Source: a bacterium
GTDB lineage: Bacteria; Bacillota; Clostridia; Lachnospirales; Lachnospiraceae
DNA length: 64,000 nt
Direction: 5' to 3'
Assembly (NCBI GenBank): GCA_023667365.1
Contig: JAMPAG010000003.1
Location: 16,384-80,383, forward strand
Shown here: positions 2,388 through 18,368 of the stretch, piece after piece
Position numbering within the stretch: position 1 is the stretch's first letter
Layout: every line of letters starts with the position of its first letter
The notes under the pieces: generated by a model
What the model was told of the DNA's origin: nothing
Databases searched by the model: none
The model's input: only the letters and a program-made list of their open reading frames with translations
Program-made: the position numbers and the translations under genes

Positions 2388-2505
2388 TATCCGCCTCCCA
2401 CCATAAAAACCAATTGCCCGCGCAAAGCAGTAGGCCCGCTTTGCGGCCGCCCGGTTTTCCTTTGCGCCTATTATCTTACCACATTTTTCCATTATCGTAA
2501 ACCGC

Positions 2506-3477
2506 TTAGCGCGTGTAAACAAAAAACCGTCCCGATTCATAGACGCAGGAAAGTCCCCAATCGTCTAAAAATTCTGCCTCAAGCGGCTCTTTTAAGACAA
2601 TCAGATTACATCCATACGTAAGCGCAAGTTCCGCCGTCGGGACCGTCAGGGGCGGCTCCGCCTCCATCGCCTGACAAAGAAGCACCTGCTCCCCCGTGTA
2701 GATGTCGTTCACACCGGCAAGCGCGTCCGTCTGCCACAGATCTCTGCCGTAGACAAGCATGATGCCGGCGTCATATCGTCTGACCGCATCCATCATGTGT
2801 TTGGGCGCAGCCATGAGCGGCACCTGACCGTTTTCCCGCATCTGCGCAGCCTGCGACAGCACCGTTTCCATTGCGCCCGCCTCCTCCTCATCCCACTCCG
2901 CGCTGCGCCTTTTTACAGCGTCCGACTCCCCATACGGAACTACCGTCCCCGCACACGCCAATGAAACGACAAGCAGCAGCGCGGCCGGAAGCGTCCGCCT
3001 TTTCCGGCGCTTCAGAATATCCGCCGCTGCATACGCGATCAACGGCAGAACCGGAACAGCCAGCGCCGCATAGACATAACGGTAAACACGCCCCGTTATT
3101 TTTTCAAACAGCAATGCCGTCAGCGGATTGAGCAGCAAGACCAGCCATACAGCCAAAGCAAGAAAGTTTCCCCCGCTCCCGCCGCTGCGTCCATCCCCTG
3201 TCACGGCGCCCGGCAATGCGGTTTCCTCCGCCGGAAACTCCTTCGTTTGCGGTGCGCCGTCACACTCCGCATCTGCGTTCCCTTCGCGCGCACCGTCACA
3301 CTCCGCACCGGCGTCTCCTTCGCGCGCGCCCTCACACTCCGCATCGGCGTTCCCGCCCCGCGCGGCAATTCTCGTCCCCGCCCAGTAAAGCGCCGCCGCA
3401 AACGCGAGCGCAAGATATGCGCCGCCCCGCGCTTCTATCCGAAAAAAGGTAAGCAGACCTTCCCAATACTCACGCAT
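2506..3477 (-). CDS. Membrane protein with an in-frame 12-aa tandem repeat and a ~190-aa C-terminal soluble domain; function unknown
   Basis: Start taken at MREYWEGLL (ATG 3477), overlapping the stop of the upstream gene by 8 nt (ATGCGTGA). About 4 TM segments. Repeat ADAECEGAREGD/AGAECDGAREGN/ADAECDGA. I recognise no family motif. Confidence 0.55.
   Translation of the reverse strand: MREYWEGLLTFFRIEARGGAYLALAFAAALYWAGTRIAARGGNADAECEGAREGDAGAECDGAREGNADAECDGAPQTKEFPAEETALPGAVTGDGRSGGSGGNFLALAVWLVLLLNPLTALLFEKITGRVYRYVYAALAVPVLPLIAYAAADILKRRKRRTLPAALLLVVSLACAGTVVPYGESDAVKRRSAEWDEEEAGAMETVLSQAAQMRENGQVPLMAAPKHMMDAVRRYDAGIMLVYGRDLWQTDALAGVNDIYTGEQVLLCQAMEAEPPLTVPTAELALTYGCNLIVLKEPLEAEFLDDWGLSCVYESGRFFVYTR
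3255..3362 (-). repeat. 3 x 36-bp in-frame tandem repeat inside CDS 2506-3477
   Basis: Plus-strand units are cgccgtcacactccgcatctgcgttcccttcgcgcg / caccgtcacactccgcaccggcgtctccttcgcgcg / cgccctcacactccgcatcggcgttcccgccccgcg. They encode ADAECEGAREGD-type 12-mers. Confidence 0.9.
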
Positions 3478-4333
3478 CCGCACCGCCTCCTTTCCCTCCG
3501 GACATCCGTTTTCGGATAACCGAAACCAGCAGCGCAAGCAACGCCATGCCCCCCGTTGCGAGAAAGATCGTCTGTAAGGAAAAGCCCTGATGCAGCAGCC
3601 GGAACGCATACGCCCCGCTGTCATAGCTTCCAAACAGCACTAAAAGCAGATAGAACAGCAGCATATGCCGGCGCGTCCTGCCCGTCAATCCCAATGCCCC
3701 CGCTAACACGCTGCACGCCGATACATTCAAAAGCAACCCCCATACAGGAACCAGACTGCATATGAACGGATACGCCCGCGCGCCCGCATAGATACACAGG
3801 ACCGCATAGAATTGCGGCAGCGCATTACATTTGGCGAGCGGCGTCATGCCAAACATAAACTCCGCGCCCGTTGCGGGGTGATACTGATACAGCGTGCGCG
3901 TCTCAAGCGTCGTCGCCGCCTGCTCCACAGTCATATCATTGCCAAAATACGGCATGTCTATTTCGATCGCAATCACATTCAGTACAAAGACGAGCGCGGT
4001 CAGAACCCATAAAATCATCCGCTCTCTTCCGGCTGCAGCCGCCTTCACTTCCCGCACCGGCGCAGACCACAGCCCGCTGCGGACGATCAGTACGGCGCTT
4101 ATAAACAAGACTGCGCAGGCGCACAGATACCCCCACTGCAAAACGAAAAAAGGAAGGGACAGACCGACGACTGCGATCTGCAAAATAAAAAACAAAATCA
4201 GCAACGAAAAGGAACCGGTCACAAATGCGTGCGCCGCTCCTTTCCCCTGCTGATGTAATAGTTGTTGTATCATGCGTCCGACCGCATAGCATACGACCGA
4301 AAACACAAGCAATATGACGATACCGGAAATCAC
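3470..4333 (-). CDS. Polytopic membrane protein (about 8 TM), unknown family; translationally coupled to 2506-3477
   Basis: GTG start at 4333 with GGAGAA RBS. Hydrophobic throughout (MISGIVILLVFSVVCYAVG...). Position in a glycan locus suggests a polymerase/ligase-like or GT-C-like role, but no motif was seen. Confidence 0.55.
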   Translation of the reverse strand: MISGIVILLVFSVVCYAVGRMIQQLLHQQGKGAAHAFVTGSFSLLILFFILQIAVVGLSLPFFVLQWGYLCACAVLFISAVLIVRSGLWSAPVREVKAAAAGRERMILWVLTALVFVLNVIAIEIDMPYFGNDMTVEQAATTLETRTLYQYHPATGAEFMFGMTPLAKCNALPQFYAVLCIYAGARAYPFICSLVPVWGLLLNVSACSVLAGALGLTGRTRRHMLLFYLLLVLFGSYDSGAYAFRLLHQGFSLQTIFLATGGMALLALLVSVIRKRMSGGKGGGADA

Positions 4334-4371
4334 AGACTTTTCTCCATTCGTTTCAGAATCATTCTGTTTCC

Positions 4372-4400
4372 AGTATATCCCATCTTGGAATCAAGTGCAA
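4372..4400 (-). promoter_or_regulatory. Sigma-A-type promoter for the 4333-2506 membrane-protein pair
   Basis: Minus strand TTGCAC-17 nt-TATACT, about 35 nt upstream of the GTG at 4333. Confidence 0.45.
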
Positions 4401-4402
4401 CT

Positions 4403-4804
4403 TTAACCCTGCTCCTCCCGCAGTTCTAATTGAATCGCATCTGCGATCCTTGCAATGTATTCGCTATTCGTCGGTCGGTTCTTGCCGTCGGCACAGGTAT
4501 AGCCGAACAATTCCTCGAACGTCTCCTCATTGCCGCGCTCCCACGAAACCTCGATCGCATTGCGCACCGCACGCTCCACTTTCTGATCGGTCGTCCTGAA
4601 TTTCTTGGCAAGCTCCGGATACAAAAGCTTTGTAACACTGCTGACGACCTCCATATCCTCAAGGCACATCATCACCGCTTCCCGCAGATACCGGAATCCG
4701 TTCAAATGCGCGGGTACGCCGATGTCAAGCATCATCTTTGTCACCCTGCGCTCTAAACGTATTCTTGTCTGCTCGTCCTCTACAAACATATGCATTGTCG
4801 TCAT
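4403..4804 (-). CDS. Stand-alone Spo0A C-terminal (DNA-binding/activation) domain protein with no receiver domain
   Basis: IGVPAHLNGFRYLREAVMMCLEDMEVVSSVTKLLYPELAKKFRTTDQKVERAVRNAIEVSWERGN...FGYT...RPTNSEYIARIADAIQLE aligns by eye along the whole Spo0A effector domain of Bacillus (IGVPAHIKGYLYLREAI...[32 protein letters not shown]...KPTNSEFIAMVADKLRL). Start chosen at ATG 4804 (AAAGGAG 7 nt upstream); ATG 4828 is possible. Confidence 0.85.
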   Translation of the reverse strand: MTTMHMFVEDEQTRIRLERRVTKMMLDIGVPAHLNGFRYLREAVMMCLEDMEVVSSVTKLLYPELAKKFRTTDQKVERAVRNAIEVSWERGNEETFEELFGYTCADGKNRPTNSEYIARIADAIQLELREEQG

Positions 4805-4859
4805 TTTTGTACTCCTTTCGGCAGTCATCCCGCTAAATGCTCATTTTCCTACAACTGAC

Positions 4860-4889
4860 ATTTTAGCATGTTCAACGACAATTTGTAAA
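4860..4889 (-). promoter_or_regulatory. Extended -10 promoter for the orphan Spo0A-C gene
   Basis: Minus strand TTTACA-18 nt-(TGC)TAAAAT, about 30 nt upstream of the AAAGGAG RBS. Confidence 0.5.
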
Positions 4890-4921
4890 CGGTAATCCAT
4901 CGCGTAATGGATGCTAAGGCG

Positions 4922-6301
4922 TTAAAACATCACATGCATCATCCCATCCATCTCATCACGTCCCGCCTGAAAATAGGATTCCTGCTGTTCCTCCTTTGTT
5001 TTCAGATGCGGCACATAGGTATTCCAACTCCCGCCCCCGGTTCTATTGATGGAGATACTGACGGGATTTCCATCCTCATTCAACTGTGTCCGAAAGCAAA
5101 ATGCATACTCCCGTTCCTCAGTCAGCCACTTGGCGCAACCGGAATAATACCTCATCAGGGTGGTTGCAATGCGGTCCGCCTCCTCGGACGTATAGCCCTT
5201 CTCCGTAAGCATCCCGCTCAATTCCTCTATGACCGCCGCCATCCGCGGACTCGGCTCCGATGTGTACGGGATGCTGCCCCCGTCTGCCGCAAGTTCCGGA
5301 TGTGCGACCATTCTCCACTCGTCCTCTCCCGGCACTTCCAGATCCGCCAGTATCTCTTTGATCCTCTCCATATCTGTCAGCCAGATGCGCGCAAGGATGC
5401 CTTGAAAATATTCCAAATCCTCCACCCGTTCCGCTTTCGGCACAACATGAAATACGATGTCCGTACCGATCACCTCATCCGTCCAGTAACGGTTCGTGAC
5501 CGAGTAATCAAGGATTCTGTACTCGCCCCTGCATTCTCCCGCATTCTGATCGTTCAATTCGATAAACAGGCGTTCCAACAGGTACCGGTTCAGATCGCGC
5601 AGCGTCATTGCAGAACCTTGTGCGGCATCCTCCCCGTCAGTACTCTCCCAAAAACTGTTGTCATAGGTATACGGTGCCTCAATCCCTCCGTCGCCCGGAT
5701 ACAGGTAAGAAGTAAACCCATCGTCTTCCTCATCCCACACTACAAGGAAATCCAGCTCACCAAGCGGAACACCACCATTCAATCGCCAATACGCCCGCAT
5801 AAACTGTGCAGCTAATTCCTCTGCTTCTTCCTCTCCTATCCCCGTATTCTGTTCCATGATCGCATCTGCGAGCGACACTTCGTCCCATTCAAGGTCTTCC
5901 GTATCTGTAATTCCTACCTTATCCAACATATTTTGAAAAACAGCCAATTCCTCAATTGGTGCTCTGCGTCGCCCTGCGCGATAATCAATATACAGCATCT
6001 GCCCGTTTCGACCCTCTCCGTAATCAGCTAATCCCTCCGACCAGGTCACGGAATAGCCAAGCAGATCGTAGTTACAGGCAGGAAACATCCCCTCCAGAAA
6101 ATATGCCTCTGCCTCCCGTTCTTTATCGAAAACCATTCCGGTCTCTTCATAGATGTTGATTACCTCTCCGGCGGCATTTGAATCTGTCTCTATTCCATAT
6201 CCTGCTATGTCATCCGTAACTAGTGACCGGCACTCGCCCTGCAATGTCAAAGTTCCTAACACCATAACCACAGCGATTGCCATAGCGTTCTCGATTCCCA
6301 T
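4922..6301 (-). CDS. Acidic signal-anchored/exported protein, unknown function; paralogous domain shared with 6334-7527
   Basis: Start chosen at ATG 6301 (AGGGGGA RBS); the track ORF starts at TTG 6337. N-terminal hydrophobic segment MAIAVVMVLGTLTLQG. Shares blocks YRILDYSVTNRY, KAERVEDLEYFQGILARIWLT and AFCFRTQLNEDGNP with the next gene. Confidence 0.6.
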   Translation of the reverse strand: MGIENAMAIAVVMVLGTLTLQGECRSLVTDDIAGYGIETDSNAAGEVINIYEETGMVFDKEREAEAYFLEGMFPACNYDLLGYSVTWSEGLADYGEGRNGQMLYIDYRAGRRRAPIEELAVFQNMLDKVGITDTEDLEWDEVSLADAIMEQNTGIGEEEAEELAAQFMRAYWRLNGGVPLGELDFLVVWDEEDDGFTSYLYPGDGGIEAPYTYDNSFWESTDGEDAAQGSAMTLRDLNRYLLERLFIELNDQNAGECRGEYRILDYSVTNRYWTDEVIGTDIVFHVVPKAERVEDLEYFQGILARIWLTDMERIKEILADLEVPGEDEWRMVAHPELAADGGSIPYTSEPSPRMAAVIEELSGMLTEKGYTSEEADRIATTLMRYYSGCAKWLTEEREYAFCFRTQLNEDGNPVSISINRTGGGSWNTYVPHLKTKEEQQESYFQAGRDEMDGMMHVMF

Positions 6302-6333
6302 TGGCAGTCCCCCTAATACCCTTGGTTGTTCAA

Positions 6334-7527
6334 TCAATAATTCAGATAATTGACATGATAAAATTTATATCCCTGTGATTGTAAGTATTCCCGTGTAACA
6401 GCATGATTTTTCCTATCATTGGTATGCGCACAGACATAAATATTATTTCCATCCACACCGCAAACAAACATAACATGGTTGTTATTTGCTACAATATCTC
6501 CTCCTACCACTTCATTGCTTCCACATTCAGTCCAAAAACGTGATTGTGTCATTGTACCAACTAATCCAGATACATTTACCCAAGGAGTACTTGCCGGATA
6601 CCATGTACCAGTCGTTAGAAATTTCCCAGCATACATACACTGAGACACATAATTTGCACAGTCATTTTGATGATAATACTTATATACACTTGTATTATAG
6701 TATCCTAAAACGCTTTTCCCTCCACAAGAAGTGCTACCACAAATAGAGCATGCTGTAGATGCATTTGTTTCAGATGTATACCTTAACGCATACACAATTG
6801 CCGCCTGTCTATTATCACTTGCGCTCATTAACGACATTAATGCATCTTCTGCATTCGCGCTCTCTGCATATACGCTCGCAATACGTTGATACTGTGCCTG
6901 CATTAGTGCATATCCATTCGCATACTGCTCTTCCGCGGTCATAATCGGAAACGTATCCTCCACATATTCATTTCCCACCTCGCGATAAACCGTGAAACCT
7001 TGCTCTCCGTCGGTCCCTATTACCGTCTTAAAACACAATATATGAGATAATTCTACTCCTATATATGTATTCAGCTCCTGATAGGTCTGTTCCAAAAAAT
7101 AAGCAATTCCATCTGCATGAGAGACCATTTCCGGCTGGCATGAAAGCTGTTCGCTCATTGTTTCTTGCGTGTATGTGGAGAGCTCACACGCCTCAGAAAT
7201 ACCAACTGCAGCAAGCATACCTCGATAACTTTCCGACTCCTCTACCCTCTGCTCTTTTGAAATAACTTTTAACGCTATCTCAGTAAATATCTCATTTGCA
7301 TTATCACCGTACCAACTATTAATACAATAATCTGTAATATGATACCCCTGCTCATACTGCAGTTTTACATGATCTAACAGATAGTTTTCGATATCTTCTG
7401 TCGAAGTTGCGCCCTCTGCATTAACCCTAAATGTCATCTCCCTCCATACAATATTGCTCAACATTAATCCCAAAACCACTACCCACACAACACCACGATT
7501 CATCCTGCTCTTTGTCTTATTTCTCAT
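6334..7527 (-). CDS. Exported protein with a C-terminal Amidase_6 (NlpC/P60-like putative amidase) domain
   Basis: Signal peptide MRNKTKSRMNRGVVWVVVLGLMLSNIVW...VNA-EG. C-terminal AAIVYALRYTSETN...NDCANYVSQCMYAGKF...PWVNVSGLVGTM...GDIVANNNHVMFVCGVDGNNIYVCAHTNDRKN matches the Cys/His pattern of the putative amidase domain. Strong RBS AGAGGGGG. The gene is visibly AT-richer than its neighbours. Confidence 0.7.
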   Translation of the reverse strand: MRNKTKSRMNRGVVWVVVLGLMLSNIVWREMTFRVNAEGATSTEDIENYLLDHVKLQYEQGYHITDYCINSWYGDNANEIFTEIALKVISKEQRVEESESYRGMLAAVGISEACELSTYTQETMSEQLSCQPEMVSHADGIAYFLEQTYQELNTYIGVELSHILCFKTVIGTDGEQGFTVYREVGNEYVEDTFPIMTAEEQYANGYALMQAQYQRIASVYAESANAEDALMSLMSASDNRQAAIVYALRYTSETNASTACSICGSTSCGGKSVLGYYNTSVYKYYHQNDCANYVSQCMYAGKFLTTGTWYPASTPWVNVSGLVGTMTQSRFWTECGSNEVVGGDIVANNNHVMFVCGVDGNNIYVCAHTNDRKNHAVTREYLQSQGYKFYHVNYLNY

Positions 7528-7736
7528 TTTGTATACCCCCTCTTAATAAAATTTTATTTCAATTTCATTTGTAGTTTATCATATTTTTAGTTTGAAATCA
7601 ACATAAAATATATCACCCTCTTTTTTTCATCAGTTTGCATATTCTGTGCATTAAAATTTAGTATATTTGCACACACCTCTATAATTTAGAACACCTGCGC
7701 ATTGTCTCCTGCCGACACTCCATTCATTCTCCCAAG

Positions 7737-7852
7737 GGCAGACAAAATGTTTCGTATTTCCCGCTCGCGTTGCTCGCCACAAAGTGGTTCCTATACGTCT
7801 CCCCGTGCAAGCACGCCGCATGAAAATCACTTTGCTCCTCTGCTTATCGCAC
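7737..7852 (-). repeat. ~116-nt structured intergenic repeat, copy A (homologous to 32316-32442)
   Basis: gcagacaaaatgtttcgtatttcccgctcgcgttgctcgccacaaagtggttcc...gtgcaagcacgccgca...cactttgctcctctgcttatcgc aligns at roughly three-quarters identity with copy B. It lies immediately after the manC terminator. Confidence 0.8.
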
Positions 7853-7855
7853 GGA

Positions 7856-7894
7856 AAAAGAGCAATATTCTCCCCTTAGAGGTATTGCTCTTTT
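7856..7894 (-). terminator. Intrinsic terminator of manC (hairpin overlaps the stop codon)
   Basis: Sense strand AAAGAGCAATA cctctaaggggaga TATTGCTCTTT followed by TT. Confidence 0.6.
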
Positions 7895-8943
7895 CCTTCC
7901 GCCTTCAACTGCTCTACGATATTCTTTACTTCTTGTGCTTTATCTTTATGGCAGACCAGGATCGCGTCATCCGCCTCGACGATGATGAGGTCCTCCACGC
8001 CGAGCGCCGCGATCAGCTTGCTCTTTGCATAAGAGATACAATTCTTCGTATCCAGATGCACCTGTTCGCCGTAAATGATATTCCCGTCCTCGTCCGGCTC
8101 GTACAGCGCCTGCAGCGCATCCCAGCTTCCGACGTCATTCCACCCGAACTCACCGATCAGCACGAGCACCTTATCTGCACGCTCCATAATCCCGTAATCG
8201 ATGGAGATTTTCGGGATTGTCGGATAAACCGCCTCCAGCACCTCCCGCTCGCGCGGCGTATTCATCGCCCTGCCGATCTGCTCCAGCTTTTCATAAATAT
8301 CCGGCAGCAGCCGTTTGAAATAAGCAAGAATCGTCGATGCCTTCCACACGAACATGCCGCTGTTCCACAAAAAACTCCCGCTCTTCACATACGCCTTCGC
8401 CGTACGAATATCCGGCTTTTCCACGAAATCCACCACATCATAATACTCGCGGTGTTTTCCCGCCTTATATTGAATGTACCCGTATCCGGTCGAGGCAAAC
8501 GCCGGCTTAATGCCGATCGTCACAAGCCTGCCCGTTTTCTCCGCGGTTGCCACCGCCCGTTTCATGACTTTTGTATACGCCTGCGGCTGCTTGATATAAT
8601 GATCGGACGGCAGGATGCACATAATGCCGTCCCCATGCTTTTTCATGATCTGCATTGCCGCATAACCAATACATGCCGATGTATTGCGCGCCGCCGGTTC
8701 GGACAAAATATGCGTCTCATCCAGACGCCCCGCCGTCGCCTCCAGCATTTTCGGCGTCTGCGACACGTTCGTCACAACATAAATATTCTGTTTATCTACA
8801 AACTCCGCAAGCCTGTCCACGGTTTCGTTTACCATGAGATCCGAGCCTGTCAGGTTTAGGAACTGCTTCGGCAGATCCTGTCTTGAAAGCGGCCAGAACC
8901 GCGTACCGCCGCCGCCTGCAAGAATCACTCCGAACGTATTCAT
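7876..8943 (-). CDS. manC: Mannose-1-phosphate guanylyltransferase
   Basis: Start at MNTFGVILAGGGGTRFWPLSRQDLPKQFLNL (ATG 8943, AAGGAG RBS). Nucleotidyl-transferase G-rich loop. About 355 aa with no PMI domain. Confidence 0.9.
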   Translation of the reverse strand: MNTFGVILAGGGGTRFWPLSRQDLPKQFLNLTGSDLMVNETVDRLAEFVDKQNIYVVTNVSQTPKMLEATAGRLDETHILSEPAARNTSACIGYAAMQIMKKHGDGIMCILPSDHYIKQPQAYTKVMKRAVATAEKTGRLVTIGIKPAFASTGYGYIQYKAGKHREYYDVVDFVEKPDIRTAKAYVKSGSFLWNSGMFVWKASTILAYFKRLLPDIYEKLEQIGRAMNTPREREVLEAVYPTIPKISIDYGIMERADKVLVLIGEFGWNDVGSWDALQALYEPDEDGNIIYGEQVHLDTKNCISYAKSKLIAALGVEDLIIVEADDAILVCHKDKAQEVKNIVEQLKAEGKEQYL

Positions 8944-9050
8944 CCGATTCCTACTCCTTATTTTATCACATATTCCGCCCCCCTTCAAGAAGGGTGCCGC
9001 GAAACTTTACACGGAAAAAGCCTCCCGCGGCTTCTTCAAAGAATGGCTTA

Positions 9051-9089
9051 GTTTCTCTTAGACCGTGTATGTTACAGTCTTAGAGAACC
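9051..9089 (-). repeat. 39-nt palindromic element P2 (15-9-15) overlapping the fcl stop codon
   Basis: GTTTCTCTTAGACCG TGTATGTTA CAGTCTTAGAGAACC. Same architecture and the same conserved TCTTAG/CTTAGA cores as P1 and P3. Confidence 0.8.
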
Positions 9090-10022
9090 TCCATTCTCTA
9101 CATTCTCGCAAAACCACGCGTACGCTTTGGCGACGCCTTCCTCAAGTTCCACTTTATGCGTCCAGCCCAGGCCGTGCAGCTTCGTCACATCCGTCAGCTT
9201 TCTCGGCGTTCCGTCCGGCATTTCGGTATTCCAGACGATCTCGCCCTCAAAGCCCACTGTTTTTTTGACAAGCTCCGCAAGCGCCCGGATCGTCAGCTCC
9301 TTACCTGTTCCGATATTCACATGCTGCTCCCCGCTGTAATTTTCCAGCAGGAACACACAGGCATCCGCCATATCGTCCACATACAAAAACTCCCTGAGCG
9401 GCGTTCCCGTTCCCCACAGCTCTACGGTCGGTCTGCCCTCCGCTTTTGCCTCATGAAATTTGCGGATCATTGCCGGCATGACATGGGAACCTGAAAGATC
9501 GTAATTATCATACGGGCCGTACAGGTTTGTCGGCATACAGGAAATAAAGTCATCCCCATACTGCCGCTTATAAAATTTGCACATCTCAAGGCCGGCGATC
9601 TTTGCAACAGCATACGCCTCGTTTGTCTCCTCCAGCGGTCCGGTCAGCAGCGCGTCCTCCGGGATCGGCTGCGGCGCCATCCTCGGATAAATACAGGTAC
9701 TGCCAAGAAACAGCAGTTTCTTCACACGATACTCATGGGCGCTCTGAATGACATTGCACTGAATCTGCATGTTGCTATAGGCAAACTCCGCCGGTTTCGT
9801 ATTGTTGGCGTTGATGCCGCCGACCTTCGCCGCCGCCAGAACCACGATGTCCGGGCGTTCCTTTTCAAAGAACGCCCGCACTGCCGCCTGATCGCAGAGA
9901 TCAAGTTCTGCATGCGTCCTTCCGATCACGTTCGTATACCCTTTTCCCTGCAGGCTGCGCACGATCGCGCTCCCGACCAGACCGCGGTGTCCCGCCACAT
10001 AAATCTTATCCGTCTTTTCCAT
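9072..10022 (-). CDS. fcl: GDP-L-fucose synthase (GDP-4-keto-6-deoxymannose 3,5-epimerase/4-reductase)
   Basis: MEKTDKIYVAGHRGLVGSAIVRSL..., YAVAKIAG (YxxxK), GTPLREFLYVDD. GGAGG lies 6 nt upstream of ATG 10022. The last codons (GSLRL*) are encoded by palindrome 9051-9089. Confidence 0.9.
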   Translation of the reverse strand: MEKTDKIYVAGHRGLVGSAIVRSLQGKGYTNVIGRTHAELDLCDQAAVRAFFEKERPDIVVLAAAKVGGINANNTKPAEFAYSNMQIQCNVIQSAHEYRVKKLLFLGSTCIYPRMAPQPIPEDALLTGPLEETNEAYAVAKIAGLEMCKFYKRQYGDDFISCMPTNLYGPYDNYDLSGSHVMPAMIRKFHEAKAEGRPTVELWGTGTPLREFLYVDDMADACVFLLENYSGEQHVNIGTGKELTIRALAELVKKTVGFEGEIVWNTEMPDGTPRKLTDVTKLHGLGWTHKVELEEGVAKAYAWFCENVENGGSLRL

Positions 10023-11209: not shown

Positions 11210-11422
11210 ACTGTGAGCCCTCCTCATTCTATTTATGTTGGATAAAAAAATAATCTGATTTTGCGATTTCTTTTCAGAGTATACTATTGTATAATAATGG
11301 TATCAACCTATATTATTGCGAAAAAATTGTATTTTATTGCTATTTATACAAAAAAAAACGCGCGTCTGCTTTCCAACACTGCGCAGAGCAGAGAGCGCCG
11401 CCCCCCGAAAGAAGGCTTTCCC

Positions 11423-12259
11423 ATGGCAAAAACACAGTCCGAACGCGTCCTCGTCACCCCCTCCGCCTATGCAAAAGAGCATTACCTCTATGTGCAGGAG
11501 GTCGGCTCCCTGCAAAGCTTAGAACCCCATATCAGCAGCCGCAAAAACTTAAATTCCTATCTTTTTTTTGTCGTTTTAAGCGGACGCGGCACGCTGACCT
11601 ACCGGAACCAGACACAGGACTTAAAAAGCGGCGACTGCGCTTTTTTGGACTGCCGCAGTCCTTACGCGCACGAAAGCTCCGAAACGGAGCCGTGGCGTTT
11701 AACGTGGGTGCATTTTAACGGCGCGGACGCCGCACATTTTTACGAATCCTACGAAGAACAGGGGCGCGCTTTTTATTTCCGCCCTGTTAGTATACTTCCG
11801 TTTGTGGAAACTATCAGTCAATTATATGAGATCAGCCGCGACCGCACGTTCCTGAACGAGCTGAACGCCCATTGTCTTTTGACGGAGCTGGTCGCGCAGA
11901 TTTATTCGTGGCAGAACGAAACATCCGACACCGTACCCGCCAAGCTGCAGCAGATCCATGAATATATCCGGCTTCATTATGCCGAAAAGATCACGCTCGA
12001 CCTGCTGTCAGATTTGTTTTTTATCAGCAAATACCATATGTCGCGCGAATACCGGCAGGCATACGGCACAACGCTCGTCAGCGACATTGCGCAGCGGCGC
12101 ATTGCGCACGCCAAATCCGCGCTCCGCTTTTCCGAGCTGCCCGTCGAATCCGTCGCCGAGGAATCCGGATTTCCCGACTGCGCCTACTTTATCCACGTTT
12201 TCAAACGCGCCGAGGGCATGACGCCCCTGCAATACCGCAAAAAGTGGAGAAGCCTGTGA
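11423..12259 (+). CDS. AraC-family transcriptional regulator (cupin sensor + HTH), divergent from gmd
   Basis: Start chosen at MAKTQSERV (ATG 11423). N-terminal AraC-binding-like cupin (YLYVQEVGSLQ...WRLTWVHFNG). C-terminal HTH_AraC (LDLLSDLFFISKYHMSREYRQAYGTTLVSDIAQRRIAHAKSAL...GFPDCAYFIHVFKRAEGMTPLQYRK). Confidence 0.85.
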   Translation: MAKTQSERVLVTPSAYAKEHYLYVQEVGSLQSLEPHISSRKNLNSYLFFVVLSGRGTLTYRNQTQDLKSGDCAFLDCRSPYAHESSETEPWRLTWVHFNGADAAHFYESYEEQGRAFYFRPVSILPFVETISQLYEISRDRTFLNELNAHCLLTELVAQIYSWQNETSDTVPAKLQQIHEYIRLHYAEKITLDLLSDLFFISKYHMSREYRQAYGTTLVSDIAQRRIAHAKSALRFSELPVESVAEESGFPDCAYFIHVFKRAEGMTPLQYRKKWRSL

Positions 12260-12309: not shown

Positions 12310-13410
12310 CTATGAGCGCCCGCGCTTCCGCAGACGACCCGACAGTTTCCGCAGCAGACATCCCAGCAGCCGCTCCAGCATCTTCAGGAGGACAGCGGCT
12401 GCAGTCGAGACTGCAAGCGCCGCCAAATACCCCAACAAATCCAGTCCAACATAAGATTTGACAAAAAAACATGCTTTTTCATACACAAATCCGTGTACCA
12501 GCCAGATATAGGTTGACTGCCCGCCCCACCACGCAAAAAGCGTCTCTAACGGTCTCACATAAGAGCACACCGTCAACAACCCGTAAGTCAGAAGCGGCGT
12601 CCATAGAAAATCCGTTCTTCCATAGGCGGGATCTTCCGCCAGCGCAACCCGCAATGTGATGACGACCGCGATCAGCACGATGGACAGACCAAGCGGCGCC
12701 CAGCGGTTTACCCTTTTTAACAGGCGGTCCGCCCTCTGATACACGCGGTAACGCGCCGCCAGATACCCCACCACAAAGATCAGTAGAAAAGAAACTCTGA
12801 GGCCGCGCCGGATGGCGGACAGCCACTCCCACAACGCGGGCTGCCACAGCGCGCCTGCCAGAACAACGGCCGCTCCTGCTGCCGCAAGGGAAGCATAAAA
12901 CAGCCGTTTCTTTTTTGTCTCCTCCCGTTTCTCAAACCGTGTCAACAGCAAATCCAGAAGCGGCAGCACCAAAAGCATCTTGGCATATTGTTCCACATAC
13001 CACCACGCCGCGTTATAAGTCGGCTGAAACGCCGTAAAATTTCCCCAGAACAGCGCCGGTGTGAACGGTCTTTTCAAAATGCCGAAAAAGCATACCATGA
13101 AGATCGTAAGCACAAGCCATAATTTTCCGTACAGTTTCAGTATCCGGCGCAGCACACGGCGGTACTCGTTACCCATTCTTCCAAAGAAACGCTCCCGCGG
13201 CTGCCTCTCCATCTCATAATACAGCCCGTACCCGCTGACAAACGCAAAAATCCCCACGCAGATTTTGCAGAACCATGCAATCCGCCTCGCTGCATCCGGC
13301 TGCATGAACGGGAGATACGACGTATATTCCGCTGCATACGAATACAAATGATGATACAGCAGCATCCAGACCGCCACACCCTGCATGAACGCCGACTGCT
13401 TCTTTGTCAT
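12310..13410 (-). CDS. Membrane O-acyltransferase (acyltransferase family 3, OafA/WecH-like)
   Basis: MTKKQSAFMQGVAVWMLLYHHLY..., about 10 TM segments, typical family-3 N-terminal motif. GGAGAA RBS at ATG 13410. Confidence 0.75.
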   Translation of the reverse strand: MTKKQSAFMQGVAVWMLLYHHLYSYAAEYTSYLPFMQPDAARRIAWFCKICVGIFAFVSGYGLYYEMERQPRERFFGRMGNEYRRVLRRILKLYGKLWLVLTIFMVCFFGILKRPFTPALFWGNFTAFQPTYNAAWWYVEQYAKMLLVLPLLDLLLTRFEKREETKKKRLFYASLAAAGAAVVLAGALWQPALWEWLSAIRRGLRVSFLLIFVVGYLAARYRVYQRADRLLKRVNRWAPLGLSIVLIAVVITLRVALAEDPAYGRTDFLWTPLLTYGLLTVCSYVRPLETLFAWWGGQSTYIWLVHGFVYEKACFFVKSYVGLDLLGYLAALAVSTAAAVLLKMLERLLGCLLRKLSGRLRKRGRS

Positions 13411-13441
13411 TCCGTTCTCCACATACCGCTCCTTTCGATCA

Positions 13442-13516
13442 GATCAGACAGAGGCATTTGCGAAACGCATTCTATAGGCTGCGCGATTGTGTTCCGCAAA
13501 TGCCTAAGATCAGACA
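13442..13516. mobile_element. MITE-like unit: 11-bp perfect terminal inverted repeats flanked by 9-bp direct repeats
   Basis: GATCAGACA g AGGCATTTGCG (32 nt) CGCAAATGCCT aa GATCAGACA, in the gap between the GtrII-like gene and the acyltransferase gene. Confidence 0.4.
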
Positions 13517-13538
13517 CCCGAATCTCATCCTGCCAATT

Positions 13539-15110
13539 TCAAAATTCACTCAGCTTAACGACCACAAAATCCTCCGTCTCTACAACGGACGCCGCCGCCG
13601 GCCAGCAGTCTATACCCGCGCTGAGAACCTCCGCTTCCGCCGTCTGCTCCACGGTCGGCGTCTCATAAGAAAAACCAAGCGTCTCAAAATATCCCAAAAT
13701 TCTGCCGGTGTTATAATAATTCGGCGTCTCAATGGGAACACCGTCCACAAACGCATATTCAAAAAGTGAATAAGAAAGAAACGATGCGGCCTCCTCTTTC
13801 GTGTAACACGAGCCGTTTCCCTTCGCATCCAGATGCCCCGTAAAGACGACCGGTTTTGTGCGTGCGGTATCGCTTAACGTGTCGATCCGGTTCATGATCT
13901 GCTGCGCCGTGATCCGGTCGGCGTCCCGCACCACATCCTGCGTATAAAACATCCGCATCAGCACGGACGCTTGGAAAAAGAGCAGGACATAGCCGCAGAG
14001 TATCCACAACTGCCGGCATACTTTTCTGCCGGGCAGATGCATCTGCAAAAAGCGGACCACAAACAGCCACATCGAAGCGCATACGAACGGCAGCATACAC
14101 TGCGCGCGGTATATCGTCGGCGTTCCCGTCACAATCGCAAGAAAAAACGGGGACGCCAGAACCGCGCCGACGCCGCAGAGCGCCGGAACACGATACTGCT
14201 TTTTTATGAAGAAATAAATCAAAACGCCCAAGCCCGCCACAGCGCACACGGCATAGGTAAGCGGGTAGAAAACATCGGTCGCAAGAAGAACATGTTTCCC
14301 ATATGCGAGCAGATTGCGGATGGTGCGTGCAAGATCGCCCGAAAACCAGCCGATCTGATCCGACAGATATGTCGTATTATTAAAAAACAGATTGGCAATG
14401 AGCTCATAGACTGCAAAGCCGATGAAAAAATGAAGCATCGACCACAGCACCTGCTTTTTCCGCTCCGCCGCCGTCTTTTGTTCCATGCAAAACAGATAAA
14501 GCACCAGATAAAAGCAAATCTGGAGATTGACCATGGACTGATAAATGCCAAAGGAAAAAATATCCATAACGACCGCAAGCGCAAACACCGCGGGATCCTT
14601 CTTTTCCAAAAAAAGAAGAAAATACCCGGACGCCGCCACGATCAGCAAGATCGCAAGCACGATCTCAAACGACTGGAAGCGGAACATATACTGATCCGCA
14701 TAGGTGGGGAAGATCAAAAACAGGCAGACAAAAACGAGGCTCACGGCATCGCTTTTCCCGCAGCCAAGCCTGGAAAACAGGCAGCAGCAGCACATTCCCG
14801 CCATCCACATCGTGATCAGAAACAGCGCCGCCGCCAGATACGGATTATACCAATGCATCCCCGTCAGACATTTGACCGCGATCAATCCGAATCTGCCGAT
14901 TCCGCCCCAGTTATAAAACGTGCGCGGGTAGTTCAGAATGACTTCCGCATCCACATAGAAGTCATTCGAATATGCCGCTTTCCCATAAACAAGCAGCAGC
15001 AAGGCGAATACCGCCGCGCTCAAAATCCTGTGTTCCCTGATATATAACGCGAACGCTTGAAACGGTACTGCTAAATTCTGTAACATTTTTTTCGTTTGAT
15101 TTTTATTCAT
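13539..15110 (-). CDS. Large polytopic membrane protein, GtrII-type (Glucos_trans_II-like) glycosyltransferase candidate
   Basis: YSNDFYVDAEVILNYPRTFYNWGGIGRFGLIAVK near the N-terminus resembles the GtrII family signature. About 12 TM segments plus a C-terminal extracytoplasmic domain. Start set at MNKNQ (15110) because the upstream ATG at 15176 lies in the 3' arm of terminator hairpin 15168-15207. The start is uncertain. Confidence 0.55.
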   Translation of the reverse strand: MNKNQTKKMLQNLAVPFQAFALYIREHRILSAAVFALLLLVYGKAAYSNDFYVDAEVILNYPRTFYNWGGIGRFGLIAVKCLTGMHWYNPYLAAALFLITMWMAGMCCCCLFSRLGCGKSDAVSLVFVCLFLIFPTYADQYMFRFQSFEIVLAILLIVAASGYFLLFLEKKDPAVFALAVVMDIFSFGIYQSMVNLQICFYLVLYLFCMEQKTAAERKKQVLWSMLHFFIGFAVYELIANLFFNNTTYLSDQIGWFSGDLARTIRNLLAYGKHVLLATDVFYPLTYAVCAVAGLGVLIYFFIKKQYRVPALCGVGAVLASPFFLAIVTGTPTIYRAQCMLPFVCASMWLFVVRFLQMHLPGRKVCRQLWILCGYVLLFFQASVLMRMFYTQDVVRDADRITAQQIMNRIDTLSDTARTKPVVFTGHLDAKGNGSCYTKEEAASFLSYSLFEYAFVDGVPIETPNYYNTGRILGYFETLGFSYETPTVEQTAEAEVLSAGIDCWPAAASVVETEDFVVVKLSEF

Positions 15111-15167
15111 ATCCCTATCCCGGATTTTCTGAGGAAACGCTTTGATTGGCATTTCCTCTGATTCAAG

Positions 15168-15207
15168 AAAATCCATACCACCGCCCGAAAACGATGGTAT
15201 GGATTTT
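15168..15207 (-). terminator. Intrinsic terminator after the secreted GH-like gene
   Basis: 13-bp perfect stem AAAATCCATACCA / TGGTATGGATTTT with a 14-nt loop, followed by CTT. It contains the ATG at 15176. Confidence 0.55.
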
Positions 15208-15246
15208 GAAAGTTATGATTTAAGTTTGACAAATGATCACACCGGA

Positions 15247-16827
15247 TCACTGTAATCCCAGCTGTGACCAACTGGACACACCGACGAACGGCGCGTATTG
15301 ATTGAGGCTGTCGCGGTCTACCATTTTATATACGGTATAGGCAGGCTTCGGCGTACCGTCGCTGTTCATCAGACCGTTCGCAAGTCCCTGCGCCACCTCT
15401 TCCGGAATATCAAGCATTGCACTGTACAATACCATCTTAATATACGGATTTGCCGCGATCAGCTTATAGGAATAAGCAATTGCCGCCGCCTGGATGTTCG
15501 CATCGTTTCCCGCACCCGCAGAGCTGAAGCCCAGCTCGGAAATAATGATGTTTCTGACAGCGCCCGTACGCGTCAGATACTGCGGCTGCTGGAAGTAATC
15601 CGTTACCACATTCATATTGAGCGGTGTAATCATCCTGGTATTGACCGAATTCGTAGCCAGTCCGCTGTACGCACGCGAAGTCGTCCAGAAGCTCGAATCC
15701 GTCAGAGGAACCGAATAAGGATGGAAGGAAAGACCCCAGTCAATATTTCCCGTTCTTAAAATTTCTGCATTAAAATTGTCAATAACAGGCTTTCCGCCAT
15801 AGGAGCTTCCGCCGTCATTGTGCAGCCATCTCTGATCGGTACAGATATAAACGTTTGCCGCGCTGTTATGACTCTTGATCGCGTTATATGCCACACGGAA
15901 CTGTCTTGCATAGTCCGCCGCGAACACTTCCACCGGAACCTCGCCTGCATAATGCCAGGAGTCGCTGCTGTTGACCTCGTTGCCGATGACATAGCTCTGT
16001 ACGGAACCGAGCTTGCCGCCGCTGTAGCGGTTCGCAAGGAACGACATGAATGCCGCGAACTTCTCCTCGCCCGCCTGTGTCGTCACATTCACCGAATAAT
16101 AGTGCGGATTCTTGCCTGTCCCAACCGCACCGGGATGAACCATGTCCGCCGTTCCCGCAGAAAGGCTGTTGACAACCATCATGCATATATCCGCATTCTG
16201 CGCATTGTAAAGAGCGACGATCAAATCCAACTCCTGTACCGCCTGCGCATTAAAGGCATACGCCTTGCCGTTATAAACATAATTGATACCGCCGCCGTTA
16301 AAGAAGTTCGCCGTATCAACCGTCGTTCCCGCATATCCCACGCCGAGATCGGAAAGGGTATGCGCATACGGCCAGTATGCCGTAATTCCCTTCTTATTGC
16401 CGGTCGCCTCGGAAATGCTGACTGTCGCTTGGGTCGCTACAGCCTCCGGGTTAAGAATATACATCTCATTACTTACCTGAACAAAAGAGGCGCCGCTCTT
16501 AACGGTCACAACAAATCTGGAATACAGTTTCGATGCGGCCGTGTCCAGATTTAAGGGTGTGGTAAAGACCACTCCGCCCGTAACCGGCACGCCGACCGCG
16601 CAATAATCCTGTCTTGCGCCGACCCCGGTCTCGTAAGGCTGTAATGCAAATAAGTAATACTGTCCGTCATCACCTGCTGCACTTCCGGTCGCAGCCACCT
16701 TCACCTGATCGCCTTCGATATAGCACAGTTGGATCGAAACGGTCGCCGCAGCAGCAGATACCGGCAGATGCAGCATCATGACCGCGACAAGCGCAACGAG
16801 CAGGCTGAGTCCCCATTTCTTTTTCAT
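15247..16827 (-). CDS. Secreted TIM-barrel glycoside-hydrolase-like protein (DUF5722-like)
   Basis: Signal peptide MKKKWGLSLLVALVAVMMLHLPVSAAAA. IGNEVNSSDSWHY (NE acid/base-type motif) and WGLSFHPYS are typical of clan GH-A-like folds found in EPS loci. GGAGGG RBS. Confidence 0.5.
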   Translation of the reverse strand: MKKKWGLSLLVALVAVMMLHLPVSAAAATVSIQLCYIEGDQVKVAATGSAAGDDGQYYLFALQPYETGVGARQDYCAVGVPVTGGVVFTTPLNLDTAASKLYSRFVVTVKSGASFVQVSNEMYILNPEAVATQATVSISEATGNKKGITAYWPYAHTLSDLGVGYAGTTVDTANFFNGGGINYVYNGKAYAFNAQAVQELDLIVALYNAQNADICMMVVNSLSAGTADMVHPGAVGTGKNPHYYSVNVTTQAGEEKFAAFMSFLANRYSGGKLGSVQSYVIGNEVNSSDSWHYAGEVPVEVFAADYARQFRVAYNAIKSHNSAANVYICTDQRWLHNDGGSSYGGKPVIDNFNAEILRTGNIDWGLSFHPYSVPLTDSSFWTTSRAYSGLATNSVNTRMITPLNMNVVTDYFQQPQYLTRTGAVRNIIISELGFSSAGAGNDANIQAAAIAYSYKLIAANPYIKMVLYSAMLDIPEEVAQGLANGLMNSDGTPKPAYTVYKMVDRDSLNQYAPFVGVSSWSQLGLQ

Positions 16828-16893
16828 TCGCTTTCCCTCCATAGAAAATCATCATGTCACACTCCCGCTTTCCTTAGAAGCGAGAATATGAGA

Positions 16894-16922
16894 ATTATAG
16901 CAGATTCCTCTTTTATACGCAA
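16894..16922 (-). promoter_or_regulatory. Strong sigma-A-type promoter upstream of the secreted GH-like gene
   Basis: Minus strand TTGCGT-17 nt-(TGC)TATAAT. Confidence 0.55.
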
Positions 16923-16967
16923 TAGTTTTTTCCAAAACTTCCAGTTCTTTCCAGCGCTCTTTCCATG

Positions 16968-18368
16968 TTAATAGCTGAGCCACATACCGATCTCCCGGTA
17001 AGCGGGGAGCGCACGGATAAAGACCATGTAAAACGAACTTCCCGCCGCAATCAAAAACGCAAATGCGATCCCGATATTGACAAGCCCGGAGGGCAGACGT
17101 TTTCCGCGGACCTCCGCGCGGGAAAGGCGCCGTATGCCGCAGACCGTATAATACATGATGGGAATGAGCGCCGGCAGGATATAGCGTCCCTGATGCTGAT
17201 AATTCATCGTGTAGGCATAGCGGATCAGCACCACAAGGGGAAGCACCATGCACAATACCATATTCAAATGAAAAAACAACGTTTTTCCGTTTATGTGACG
17301 TTCCTTTTTCACAAGAAAGCACCCGAAACTCCACAGCCCGCCGATTATACCCGCGCCGAACAGCAGCTTGTAAGAAAGATACGTCCAGTAATTCCCGCGG
17401 ATGGACAGCGAGCCGAACGCAGCGATAAAGCTGTCATACAGACATTGAAAAAAATTGTTTTCCGACAGCATCTGAAAAAGACCGATCCCGCGCGCCTGAT
17501 AGGTATAGAGCGGACTCGTCTCCGGAAGCGCATACAGCAGCGCCAGCTGCTCCTTCGTCTTAAGTCCGAGAAAATCACCGTCCAGCACAATATACGCGCG
17601 CACGAACCACCAGCCCGCGCCGAGGATGACAAGGACGCTGACCAGCGCGCCGTAGGTAAACATCTTCTTGAAATCGCACCGCCATTTCCCTTGCTCTTTT
17701 CCCACATAATAAGCGGCAAAGAGCAGGACGGCGGACAAAATATAGCCGTAAGCATTATAATAAGAAAGCGCGCATAAAACGATCCCGACCGCAAGACAGA
17801 TACCGTTTTTGACCTGAAACCCTTCCTGATACCCCCACACCAAGGCATAAAGGATCATCGCCGTCGCGAGCAGACAGCAGGAATCCGTATTGACATAGGT
17901 GTGGACAAACAGGTTTTCCGGCAGATACATGACCGCCGCGCAGAAAAGCCATCGGAACCGCCGGTCCGCAAACAGGCGTTTTCCGAGCAGATACACAAAG
18001 ACCGCCATGATGCAGCCAAAAACGATGTTGACCGACCGCCCCGCATATAAAAGCGCAAGCTCCGAATCCGTAAACAGGCTGACAAAACGCATAAAATAGC
18101 CTTGAACAATATACGGCAGCGTGTTATACAGTCCGTACGAAAACCCGCATCCGGTAATCCGGACTTCTTCTTCCAGTCCGGTCGGCAGCGTGCCGTGATC
18201 GCAGATATACTTAGGAATCAGCATACGGAAATATTCATCGGGCGGGCTGACCGGAACTTCCGAGATCGTATCGACATGCGGCTGATAAACCGCCATCGGA
18301 ATTGCCAATAGCAGGAAACCTGCCAGATATAATAGAAAAAAAATACGTTCGGATTGCTTTTTTATCAT
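16968..18368 (-). CDS. GT-C-fold (ArnT/PMT-like) membrane glycosyltransferase candidate
   Basis: About 12 TM segments. The first extracytoplasmic loop carries PPDEYFRM (a DE-type motif as in GT-C enzymes). Start at MIKKQSERIFF (ATG 18368). Confidence 0.5.
   Translation of the reverse strand: MIKKQSERIFFLLYLAGFLLLAIPMAVYQPHVDTISEVPVSPPDEYFRMLIPKYICDHGTLPTGLEEEVRITGCGFSYGLYNTLPYIVQGYFMRFVSLFTDSELALLYAGRSVNIVFGCIMAVFVYLLGKRLFADRRFRWLFCAAVMYLPENLFVHTYVNTDSCCLLATAMILYALVWGYQEGFQVKNGICLAVGIVLCALSYYNAYGYILSAVLLFAAYYVGKEQGKWRCDFKKMFTYGALVSVLVILGAGWWFVRAYIVLDGDFLGLKTKEQLALLYALPETSPLYTYQARGIGLFQMLSENNFFQCLYDSFIAAFGSLSIRGNYWTYLSYKLLFGAGIIGGLWSFGCFLVKKERHINGKTLFFHLNMVLCMVLPLVVLIRYAYTMNYQHQGRYILPALIPIMYYTVCGIRRLSRAEVRGKRLPSGLVNIGIAFAFLIAAGSSFYMVFIRALPAYREIGMWLSY

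Follow-up and report, generated by a model that had tools for sequence, protein, structure and literature searches.

Why should a gut bacterium carry the DNA-binding half of Spo0A on its own among the genes for a cell-surface glycan, and did that gene arrive together with the genes that lie beside it? Spo0A is the textbook phosphorelay-controlled master switch of the Firmicutes. The locus that raises the question lies in a 64,000-nucleotide (nt) stretch, hereafter the window, of a Lachnospiraceae genome (GenBank assembly GCA_023667365.1, contig JAMPAG010000003.1, positions 16,384 to 80,383). A first-pass annotation of this DNA had described three minus-strand open reading frames (ORFs), which are indeed present between a DUF6077 gene (3470-4333) and manC (7876-8988). 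The ORF at 4403-4804 encodes a stand-alone Spo0A C-terminal effector domain and is called Spo0A_C here, while the other two, at 4922-6301 and 6334-7527, encode prot2 and prot3, both putative exported proteins. The annotation had read the three genes as one inserted unit. We consider it rather probable instead that Spo0A_C is an old resident gene of the glycan locus and that a young, variable island of exported-protein genes occupies 4922-7875.

Spo0A_C is a complete effector domain without a receiver

The product of 4403-4804 (minus strand, 133 amino acids [aa]) matched the Spo0A C-terminal effector/DNA-binding domain PF08769 with an E-value of 8e-40 over profile positions 1-104 of 104, scoring 135.6 bits against a gathering score of 25. 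PF08769 is its sole Pfam domain, as the annotation had it, and the likeness to the Bacillus Spo0A effector domain that had been noticed by eye was borne out by alignment with the structures 1FC3 and 1LQ1 (E=4e-38). The Spo0A equivalog model TIGR02875 matched at model positions 134-259 only, with 151.5 bits against a cut-off of 200. The DNA directly upstream is the 3' end of prot2, and a tblastn search of the whole window with the Bacillus receiver as query returned nothing better than E=4, in agreement with the claimed absence of a receiver. The gene also has the ribosome-binding site (RBS) ascribed to it, AAAGGAG at 4818-4812, 7 nt ahead of the ATG at 4804; an alternative ATG at 4828 would give a 141-aa protein and has a poor RBS.

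Alignment of 73 unique Spo0A_C orthologues of 123-146 aa showed conservation of 90% or more at 74 of the 113 aligned positions. Invariant residues, in B. subtilis numbering, were E213, R214, R217, G227, F236, A257 and D258, and the recognition helix was kept (orthologue consensus TTdQKVERAiRNAIEVSW; VERAVRNAIE in the window protein). S233 was replaced by E in 90% of the orthologues; its helix is, we presume, part of the surface that contacts sigma-A in B. subtilis Spo0A. A search of 5.8 billion proteins returned 3223 relatives. The best 120 of these were 116-200 aa long with Spo0A_C as the only Pfam domain, and the few named ones were from Lachnospiraceae or Clostridiales. When we sampled ten relatives of 254-275 aa, seven were found to consist of a receiver plus Spo0A_C, with a C-terminal domain 47-55% identical to the window protein.

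These data bear on whether the 133-aa ORF might be the decaying remnant of a disrupted full-length spo0A. Such a remnant would fit the match to only the C-terminal half of the equivalog model, but no receiver remnant was found and the gene has its own promoter and RBS. Moreover, the 73 distinct orthologues are conserved to the degree given above, and between species that share only 51-94% identity in the neighbouring genes Spo0A_C retains 97-99%, so we regard decay as extremely unlikely. Spo0A_C is a vertically inherited, receiver-less Spo0A paralogue that forms a separately evolving natural family.

The domain also occurred in other arrangements. The metagenomic proteins P0147, P0149, P0179 and P0194 had unusual Spo0A_C architectures; the domain was seen in two to four tandem copies within one polypeptide, and fused to an AraC-type cupin ligand-binding domain or to an unrelated N-terminal domain. 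Literature searches on receiver-less Spo0A, on Spo0A_C/PF08769 and on Spo0A paralogues in Lachnospiraceae yielded no functional study; one paper mentioned spo0A paralogues in Clostridiales. Likewise, searches on Spo0A paralogues, PF08769 and DUF6077 found no paper describing a receiver-less Spo0A_C family at a glycan locus.

Spo0A_C is a resident core gene of the glycan locus

We compared 86 orthologous loci (L001-L086), 80 of which came from a scan of one-genome-per-species representatives. The 80 loci carried a stand-alone Spo0A_C with 67-99% identity, and all were from Lachnospiraceae-type genomes except one bin labelled Odoribacter. That record (L078, titled Odoribacter splanchnicus) carries a Lachnospiraceae-type locus in which Spo0A_C and GtrB are both 73% identical, and its Bacteroidota label is probably a binning error.

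The genes around Spo0A_C proved to be much the same throughout. A homologue of the GtrB-type glycosyltransferase gene lay within 2.5 kb of Spo0A_C in 66 of the 86 loci and was the immediate upstream neighbour in most relatives. GT2a, the GT2 glycosyltransferase gene of 654-1430, was present in 68 of 86, and at least one of GtrB, GT2a, fcl, gmd and manC in 83. The gene immediately downstream of Spo0A_C encoded DUF6077 in all 31 loci sampled. Annotated gene tables placed L001-L004, L090 and L091 in the same locus type, while in L088 a different polysaccharide locus (NeuB, TagF-like, ABC2) surrounded Spo0A_C. The most distant subgroup was without DUF6077, yet here too the gene stood in a polysaccharide locus (fcl, manC, Spo0A_C, NeuB and, later, TagF-like, ABC2 and Stealth).

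A synteny test had been suggested, asking whether manC adjoins the DUF6077 homologue where the three genes are missing. This was not what we found. In L001-L004, a sister clade with a 78%-identical Spo0A_C, the order is gmd, fcl, manC, Spo0A_C, DUF6077, its membrane partner, GT2, GT2 and priming transferase; manC directly adjoins Spo0A_C, which is followed by DUF6077, and prot2 and prot3 are not there. Other genes were found at the junction of manC and Spo0A_C in L005, L008 and L090. Spo0A_C itself was present in all 86 loci and thus showed no presence/absence polymorphism, unlike prot2 and prot3, whose homologues were confined to the window's own clade (L007-L013). Relative to L007 and L009, identities were 99 and 97% for Spo0A_C, 94 and 71% for DUF6077, 84 and 51% for the partner and 64 and 74% for prot3. 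Spo0A_C is therefore among the best conserved genes of the locus.

The composition of the gene agreed with this. Measured against a baseline of 50 window genes (GC 0.530, standard deviation [sd] 0.031; GC at third codon positions [GC3] 0.638, sd 0.059), Spo0A_C had a GC of 0.512 and a GC3 of 0.634, with a GC3 z-score of -0.1. Because it combines host-like GC3 and top conservation with the same locus in 86 relatives, we conclude that Spo0A_C is a resident core gene of a Lachnospiraceae cell-surface glycan locus across approximately 80 gut species.

Some observations favour the idea that all three genes were acquired horizontally as a single module, in which a regulator independent of the phosphorelay and a cell-wall pair were set into an exopolysaccharide locus. 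The genes adjoin one another in the same direction and no terminator-like site was called among them; the AT content of prot3 and its leader is markedly high; and mobile elements of gut Firmicutes are reported to be enriched in PF08769 (PMC6907783). Nevertheless, the host composition of Spo0A_C and its presence at the same locus in 86 relatives, most of them without prot2 and prot3, contradict an acquired regulator, and the synteny separates the resident Spo0A_C from prot2 and prot3, which belong to the window's clade only, so that the three cannot be treated as one inserted unit. In L001-L004 manC adjoins Spo0A_C directly. Integrase and transposase ORFs were absent from 4300-7900, and no flanking direct repeats were seen, the only partner of the bordering repeat being 24.6 kb away. 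The top "phage" match was a mislabelled bacterial copy of the locus. We thus judge the single-module explanation very improbable.

A phage origin of Spo0A_C was rejected; the 14 matches in the phage collection were unannotated faecal contigs, mostly below 57% identity. One 7-kb record (L087, GenBank MT838085.1, 'UNVERIFIED: Bacteriophage sp.') contained GtrB, Spo0A_C, DUF6077, the partner and GT2 in the bacterial order and is most likely a bacterial fragment, not a phage.

The manC-Spo0A_C junction is a variable slot for exported proteins

The three-gene block had been called AT-richer, and 6334-7740 much more AT-rich than the flanks. This held for prot3 (GC 0.396, z -4.3; GC3 0.337, z -5.1) and for the leader at 7528-7736 (GC 0.31) and not for prot2 (GC 0.510; GC3 0.553, GC3 z -1.4) or Spo0A_C, both of which are host-like. 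Foreign composition is restricted to prot3 and the spacer upstream of it.

The content of the junction changed from one close relative to the next. In the window it holds prot3 and prot2, in L007 two prot2 copies flank prot3, and in L009 and L010 a 552-aa lipoprotein gene follows prot3 and prot2. L008 has six exported-protein or lipoprotein genes at this position, including one for a C39-like peptidase, and L011 and L012 have a short form of prot2 only. The junction of L013 is empty but for ~80 nt of the prot2 3' end, a residue that marks it as a deletion. The prot2 family was thus found in L007-L012, prot3 in L007, L009 and L010, and a 515-552-aa lipoprotein family in L008-L010. Where manC was 95-99% identical, prot3 was only 64-75% identical to its orthologues. 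From these comparisons, the junction appears as a genus-restricted, fast-changing slot for exported, often hydrolase-like proteins, with prot2 as its apparent oldest occupant. Outside this clade, L005 (3224-10911) and L006 carry a cassette resembling those for ribosomally synthesized and post-translationally modified peptides at the same junction, with radical SAM, two ABC transporters, an S8 peptidase fragment and an extracytoplasmic function (ECF) sigma factor; a second, truncated Spo0A_C ORF of 85 aa comes after the first.

The genes of prot2 and prot3 are both on the minus strand, and the starts at 6301 and 7527 are backed by NCBI gene calls of identical proteins. Prot2 (4922-6301, 459 aa) has an N-terminal hydrophobic segment, and prot3 (6334-7527, 397 aa) has a signal-peptide-like N-terminus followed by a domain common to both proteins and a C-terminal Amidase_6 domain; the export signals were judged by eye. 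Prot2 had no match in Pfam, NCBIfam, PHROG or PADLOC and fell into 19 protein clusters among the 5.8 billion proteins, all hypothetical, while prot3 fell into seven. The two had been said to share a domain of ~130 aa. Their paralogy was confirmed (BLASTP, E=4e-7), and the length was revised to ~170 aa: hhalign of the two families gave a probability of 97.9% (E=5e-13) for an alignment of 170 columns in which residues 40-210 of prot3 correspond to residues 231-452 of prot2. A weaker second BLAST segment was seen in prot2, and its models repeat a helix-hairpin-helices-sheet pattern; prot2 probably carries the shared domain twice, the second copy being N-terminal and more diverged.

The Amidase_6 assignment stood up well. 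PF12671 matched prot3 residues 238-381 with 44.9 bits against a cut-off of 23.2 (E=2e-11), and the L007 orthologue also scored above the cut-off. C290 (in DCANYVSQC), H351, H368 and D371 were invariant in the prot3 family alignment of seven homologues; the Cys and His may be the catalytic residues, as in papain-like (clan CA) hydrolases, with the limit that the model of the Amidase_6 domain is poor. AlphaFold2 gave a mean predicted local distance difference test (pLDDT) score of 52 for the prot3 family (7 sequences) and 54 for the prot2 family (19 sequences). Foldseek of these models against the PDB returned nothing below E=0.2, with prot3 appearing weakly similar to NlpC/P60 enzymes, and a sequence search of the PDB with prot3 gave nothing meaningful. 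Hints of NTF2-like and NlpC/P60 folds for the shared domain were dropped as too weak, given the poor models. A secreted, envelope-directed cysteine amidase or peptidase is the probable identity of prot3, with prot2 probably a non-catalytic paralogue of the prot3 N-terminal domain.

A different reading of the pair is that prot3 is a secreted antibacterial amidase toxin with prot2 as its paralogous immunity or chaperone partner, or that both derive from a phage lysin cassette. The cysteine-hydrolase domain with invariant Cys and His, the foreign composition, the 64-75% identity against 95-99% in the flanks, and the presence/absence variation are all compatible with this, as are the peptidase-like exported proteins of neighbouring islands. 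But phage, secretion-system and toxin-delivery genes are not nearby, PADLOC gave no match and PHROG only a marginal one (E=7e-4), and the hydrophobic N-terminus of prot2 would be unusual for a cytoplasmic immunity protein. The two families are also too small for co-occurrence statistics. We consider this reading quite unlikely and retain the view of the pair as lineage-specific envelope proteins. The island is tied to Spo0A_C by adjacency and possible read-through transcription, and by no other link.

0A boxes lie within the predicted Spo0A_C promoter of many orthologous loci

The first-pass annotation had assigned Spo0A_C its own extended -10 promoter. The predicted sigma-A-type site at 4860-4889 (minus strand; -35 TTTACA at 4889-4884, TG at 4868-4867, -10 TAAAAT at 4865-4860, 18-nt spacer) was the best promoter-like site in 2400-9100, which upholds the assignment, and the promoter core at 4846-4905 could be aligned at 85% with L009 and L011.

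The 86 upstream regions were then analyzed for the 0A box of Spo0A. Exact TGTCGAA/TTCGACA occurred 26 times in the 250 nt upstream of Spo0A_C as compared to 0-3 times in any other 250-nt bin, and 24 of the 26 shared one orientation. Similarly, TCGACA was found 61 times in the -200 to -1 bin and 0-5 times in each other 200-nt bin within 5 kb. Forty-seven of the 86 loci carried at least one oriented box in the promoter of Spo0A_C itself, and its register was fixed: a -35 element (TTTnCA), 3 nt, [T/A]TCGACA, 4 nt and TGnTAnnnT, giving a 17-nt spacer that holds the box. Boxes at this register fit [A/C/T]TCGAC[A/G]. Nineteen loci had two boxes 49-50 nt apart, the second lying downstream in the leader, and 11 further loci had the TCGCGACA variant. 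In L024, L045, L068 and other Acetatifactor-type loci, we noted a conserved leader element, GTCGCAGTAAGGnGCAATACTCGACA, ~30-60 nt upstream of the Spo0A_C start, which includes a second 0A-like box. What is new here is the presence of a 0A box within the promoter of many Spo0A_C orthologues together with the retention of the recognition helix.

In the window, the register of the orthologous boxes is occupied by TGTCGTT (4874-4880, minus strand, in the -35/-10 spacer), a degenerate heptamer in the opposite orientation that matches TGTCGAA at 5/7 positions. A TGCCGAA at 4817-4823 (minus strand) in the 5' leader fits the relaxed 0A consensus TGNCGAA and overlaps the RBS; like TGTCGTT it is a weak match and is oriented opposite to the orthologous boxes. 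It was found in the window and L007 only and may be due to chance.

The canonical spo0A gene is regulated via 0A boxes in its own promoter region, mostly repressively (bioRxiv 10.1101/2025.01.21.634141). Since the box of the orthologues lies inside the promoter spacer, and by parallel with canonical spo0A, its position suggests repression, by the short protein and/or by Spo0A~P.

A second motif, CGCGATG, lies at 4898-4904 (minus strand) in the window, 8 nt upstream of the -35 element, and at ~8-10 nt across loci L001-L086. Of the 86 upstream regions, 25 contained the exact motif, where 0.44 were expected, and many further loci, those of the window's clade among them, showed CGCGAT[G/A] variants; that clade is without a 0A box. 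It was rejected as a second 0A box given that only 3-4/7 positions match the TTCGNCA consensus. A search for a shared motif ahead of the DUF6077 and GtrB genes returned only terminator T-runs and -10-like words.

Transcription unit of Spo0A_C

A terminator-like hairpin was found 3' of Spo0A_C in 54 of 78 loci, and the gap downstream of the gene contained a promoter-like site of its own in 34 of 63 cases, relative to 8/63 coding controls. Co-transcription of Spo0A_C and DUF6077 as a general rule was therefore rejected for most species. The window's clade and L001-L004 differ in this respect. The gap to DUF6077 is 64-69 nt there (in the window, DUF6077 starts 69 nt past the Spo0A_C stop), and no terminator-like site was found in it. 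Since this short gap has no such site, Spo0A_C probably heads a glycan operon in these two clades, as far as can be predicted from sequence.

These observations are also relevant to another possibility, in which the short Spo0A acts across the whole genome on the 0A-box network of sporulation, either mimicking Spo0A~P constitutively or competing with it in vegetative cells, and its place in the glycan locus is historical. Via the promoter box, Spo0A~P would then turn it off or on as sporulation begins. The key residues of its recognition helix are identical to those of canonical Spo0A, 0A boxes within 5 kb are confined to its promoter with none ahead of glycan genes, Spo0A_C is monocistronic in most species, and part of what we take to be the sigma-A-contacting helix is changed, as with S233. 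On the other hand, the linkage to glycan genes outlasts rearrangements (GtrB up- or downstream, CotH or NeuB as neighbour, varied junction inserts), and Spo0A_C appears to head a glycan operon in two clades. We find a role as a genome-wide modulator somewhat unlikely, with a local function in the glycan locus to be preferred.

The glycan genes next to Spo0A_C

The neighbours of Spo0A_C in the window, all on the minus strand, suggest a glycosylation system. The product of 1458-2387, a GtrB-type GT2 glycosyltransferase, matched 5EKP (Synechocystis sll0501) over its full length with E=3e-76 and an undecaprenyl-phosphate Ara4FN transferase with E=9e-41, and because it is close to both GtrB and the latter enzyme we assign it as a polyprenyl-phosphate sugar synthase. 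The gene at 3470-4333 encodes a polytopic DUF6077 membrane protein (PF19554, E=8e-15) with a nearly invariant D133...E137 motif; it is overlapped by the gene of its likewise polytopic membrane partner (2506-3633), and in L063 the two are fused into one 565-aa protein. A search of solved structures in the PDB with the DUF6077 profile gave nothing meaningful and no similarity to any solved GT-C enzyme, and our literature search on DUF6077 found no paper. DUF6077 and its partner may constitute the membrane glycosyltransferase that matches GtrB. No GtrA-type flippase was noticed among the annotated neighbours, in which no search aimed at GtrA was made. On the other side, manC (7876-8988; mannose-1-phosphate guanylyltransferase, PF00483 and PF22640) forms the upstream border of the variable junction.

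Other features of the region were recorded. The partner gene has a 36-nt tandem repeat at 3254-3354 (2.8 copies, 84% matches, GC ~0.63) that encodes GNADAECEGARE-like repeats. Beyond manC, a divergent AraC-type regulator gene (11261-12259) adjoins gmd and is conserved in relatives, and the glycan locus runs on through 12310-29926 with acyltransferase_3, DUF5722, two DUF2142 membrane proteins, a GtrII-type glucosyltransferase (13539-15176) and a pyruvyl-transferase/FrhB fusion (22344-24797). In L052 (10369-12072), as in L043, L047, L053 and L058, a CotH-kinase gene (PF08757, E=2e-23) replaces DUF6077 downstream of Spo0A_C, and this subclade encodes close by a polytopic membrane protein of 520-550 aa that matched nothing in Pfam.

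A possible role for Spo0A_C

We propose the following model. The usual order of the locus appears to be GDP-mannose/fucose genes, GtrB, Spo0A_C, DUF6077 and its partner, GT2, priming transferase and polymerase. The short Spo0A would bind 0A-box DNA without phosphorylation, so that its activity would be set by the amount made. Binding to the 0A box would repress the Spo0A_C promoter, as negative autoregulation and/or as a means for canonical Spo0A~P to switch the gene off. For the clade of the window and for L001-L004, gene spacing suggests that this promoter also drives DUF6077, the partner, GtrB and GT2, and the short Spo0A could thereby set the expression of the glycosylation operon that it heads. 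In its fullest form, the model describes a phosphorelay-independent Spo0A paralogue as a self-limiting node of the glycan locus across gut Lachnospiraceae that reads sporulation 0A boxes and couples surface glycans to sporulation or insulates them from it, beside a junction that would be a hot spot for lineage-specific exported envelope enzymes. This fuller version is possible but doubtful.

Several points weigh against this interpretation. In most species Spo0A_C is, from its downstream hairpins and the promoter-like sites in the gaps, a self-contained and predicted monocistronic unit, and direct control of the glycan genes is a candidate role only. Enrichment of 0A boxes was sought ahead of DUF6077, GtrB and every gene within 5 kb, and none was found. 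The window itself is without a good 0A box, having only TGTCGTT and TGCCGAA, and the operator model thus rests on the orthologues. Promoters, terminators and export signals are all predicted, the structure models of prot2 and prot3 (pLDDT 52-54) are poor for the fold of the shared domain, and the loci compared are from related species, so that the counts are not independent observations.

The repeat in the manC-prot3 spacer

The spacer between manC and prot3 (7528-7875, minus strand) consists of the AT-rich leader and, at ~7730-7860, a degenerate copy of an element resembling the Clostridiales-1 RNA (RF01699). The repeat of ~120 nt that was said to border the block was readily found: its 71-nt core at 7745-7815 is 79% identical to 32330-32400, with ~115 nt alignable, and a 22-nt fragment also matches 41844-41865. 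The other copy, at 32318-32430 (minus strand) upstream of leuA (30591-32270), aligned with the full RF01699 model (1-166) at 28.8 bits (E=3e-4), and in this it resembles the Clostridiales-1 RNA; its score is nevertheless below the gathering score of 48. Its folding z-score was -5.6 as compared to -0.6 for the copy at 7730-7860, which folds no better than shuffled sequence. The latter copy is further unlike the RNA in that an E-value-threshold scan of 7500-7900 with RF01699 gave no match, and a scan of the whole window with Rfam at gathering thresholds also gave none. Window positions 7487-7854 had no counterpart in the closest relative, L007, and the copy next to manC was absent from all 86 related loci.

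Relation to known systems and significance

Compared with canonical Spo0A of B. subtilis (1FC3, 1LQ1), the window protein has the complete effector domain with the residues E213, R214, R217, G227, F236, A257 and D258, and its orthologues share a 0A box in their own promoter region. It differs in being without a receiver, and hence without phosphorelay input, in its position in a polysaccharide locus, in its sub-cut-off TIGR02875 score, in an identity of only 47-55% to the sampled receiver-containing proteins and in a partly substituted sigma-A helix. In isolation, the Spo0A C-terminal domain is able to bind DNA and to activate transcription. Induction of sad67, an allele of spo0A with constitutive activity, switches on early genes of sporulation (PMC4689505). 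In both, as in Spo0A_C, the effector domain is freed from inhibition by the receiver; these are laboratory constructs of the master regulator, whereas Spo0A_C is a natural family, distinct both in promoter architecture and in genomic niche.

Gtr-type systems of extracytoplasmic glycosylation pair GtrB with a GT-C partner, CsbB/YfhO and GtlA/GtlB being examples from Firmicutes. The locus is similar in having a close GtrB homologue (1458-2387) beside the polytopic DUF6077 protein and its partner, and dissimilar in that DUF6077 has no detectable similarity to solved GT-C enzymes. To our knowledge, a Spo0A-type regulator has not been described for any Gtr system. Prot3 is related to Amidase_6/NlpC-P60-like hydrolases such as MepS and C. 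difficile Acd24020 by its PF12671 match, its invariant Cys and His and a weak structural similarity, and is set apart by its new N-terminal domain of ~170 aa, common to prot2 only, and its seven clusters.

The practical consequences concern annotation in part. Genome-based estimates of sporulation capacity should leave genes such as Spo0A_C out of the spo0A count, and at least one record in a 'phage' database is in fact this bacterial locus. Prot2 and prot3 are of lesser weight; they illustrate that the junction accepts varying genes for exported, hydrolase-like proteins, in which a new domain is shared. As far as we know, very little is known of the control of surface glycans in Lachnospiraceae, and the locus offers an entry point for experiments in the form of a predicted operator, TTCGACA in the promoter spacer, a small protein of 125-133 aa and defined neighbour genes. 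A widespread, conserved receiver-less Spo0A at a glycan locus of abundant gut commensals would demonstrate a second use of the 0A DNA-reading module, beyond the decision to sporulate.

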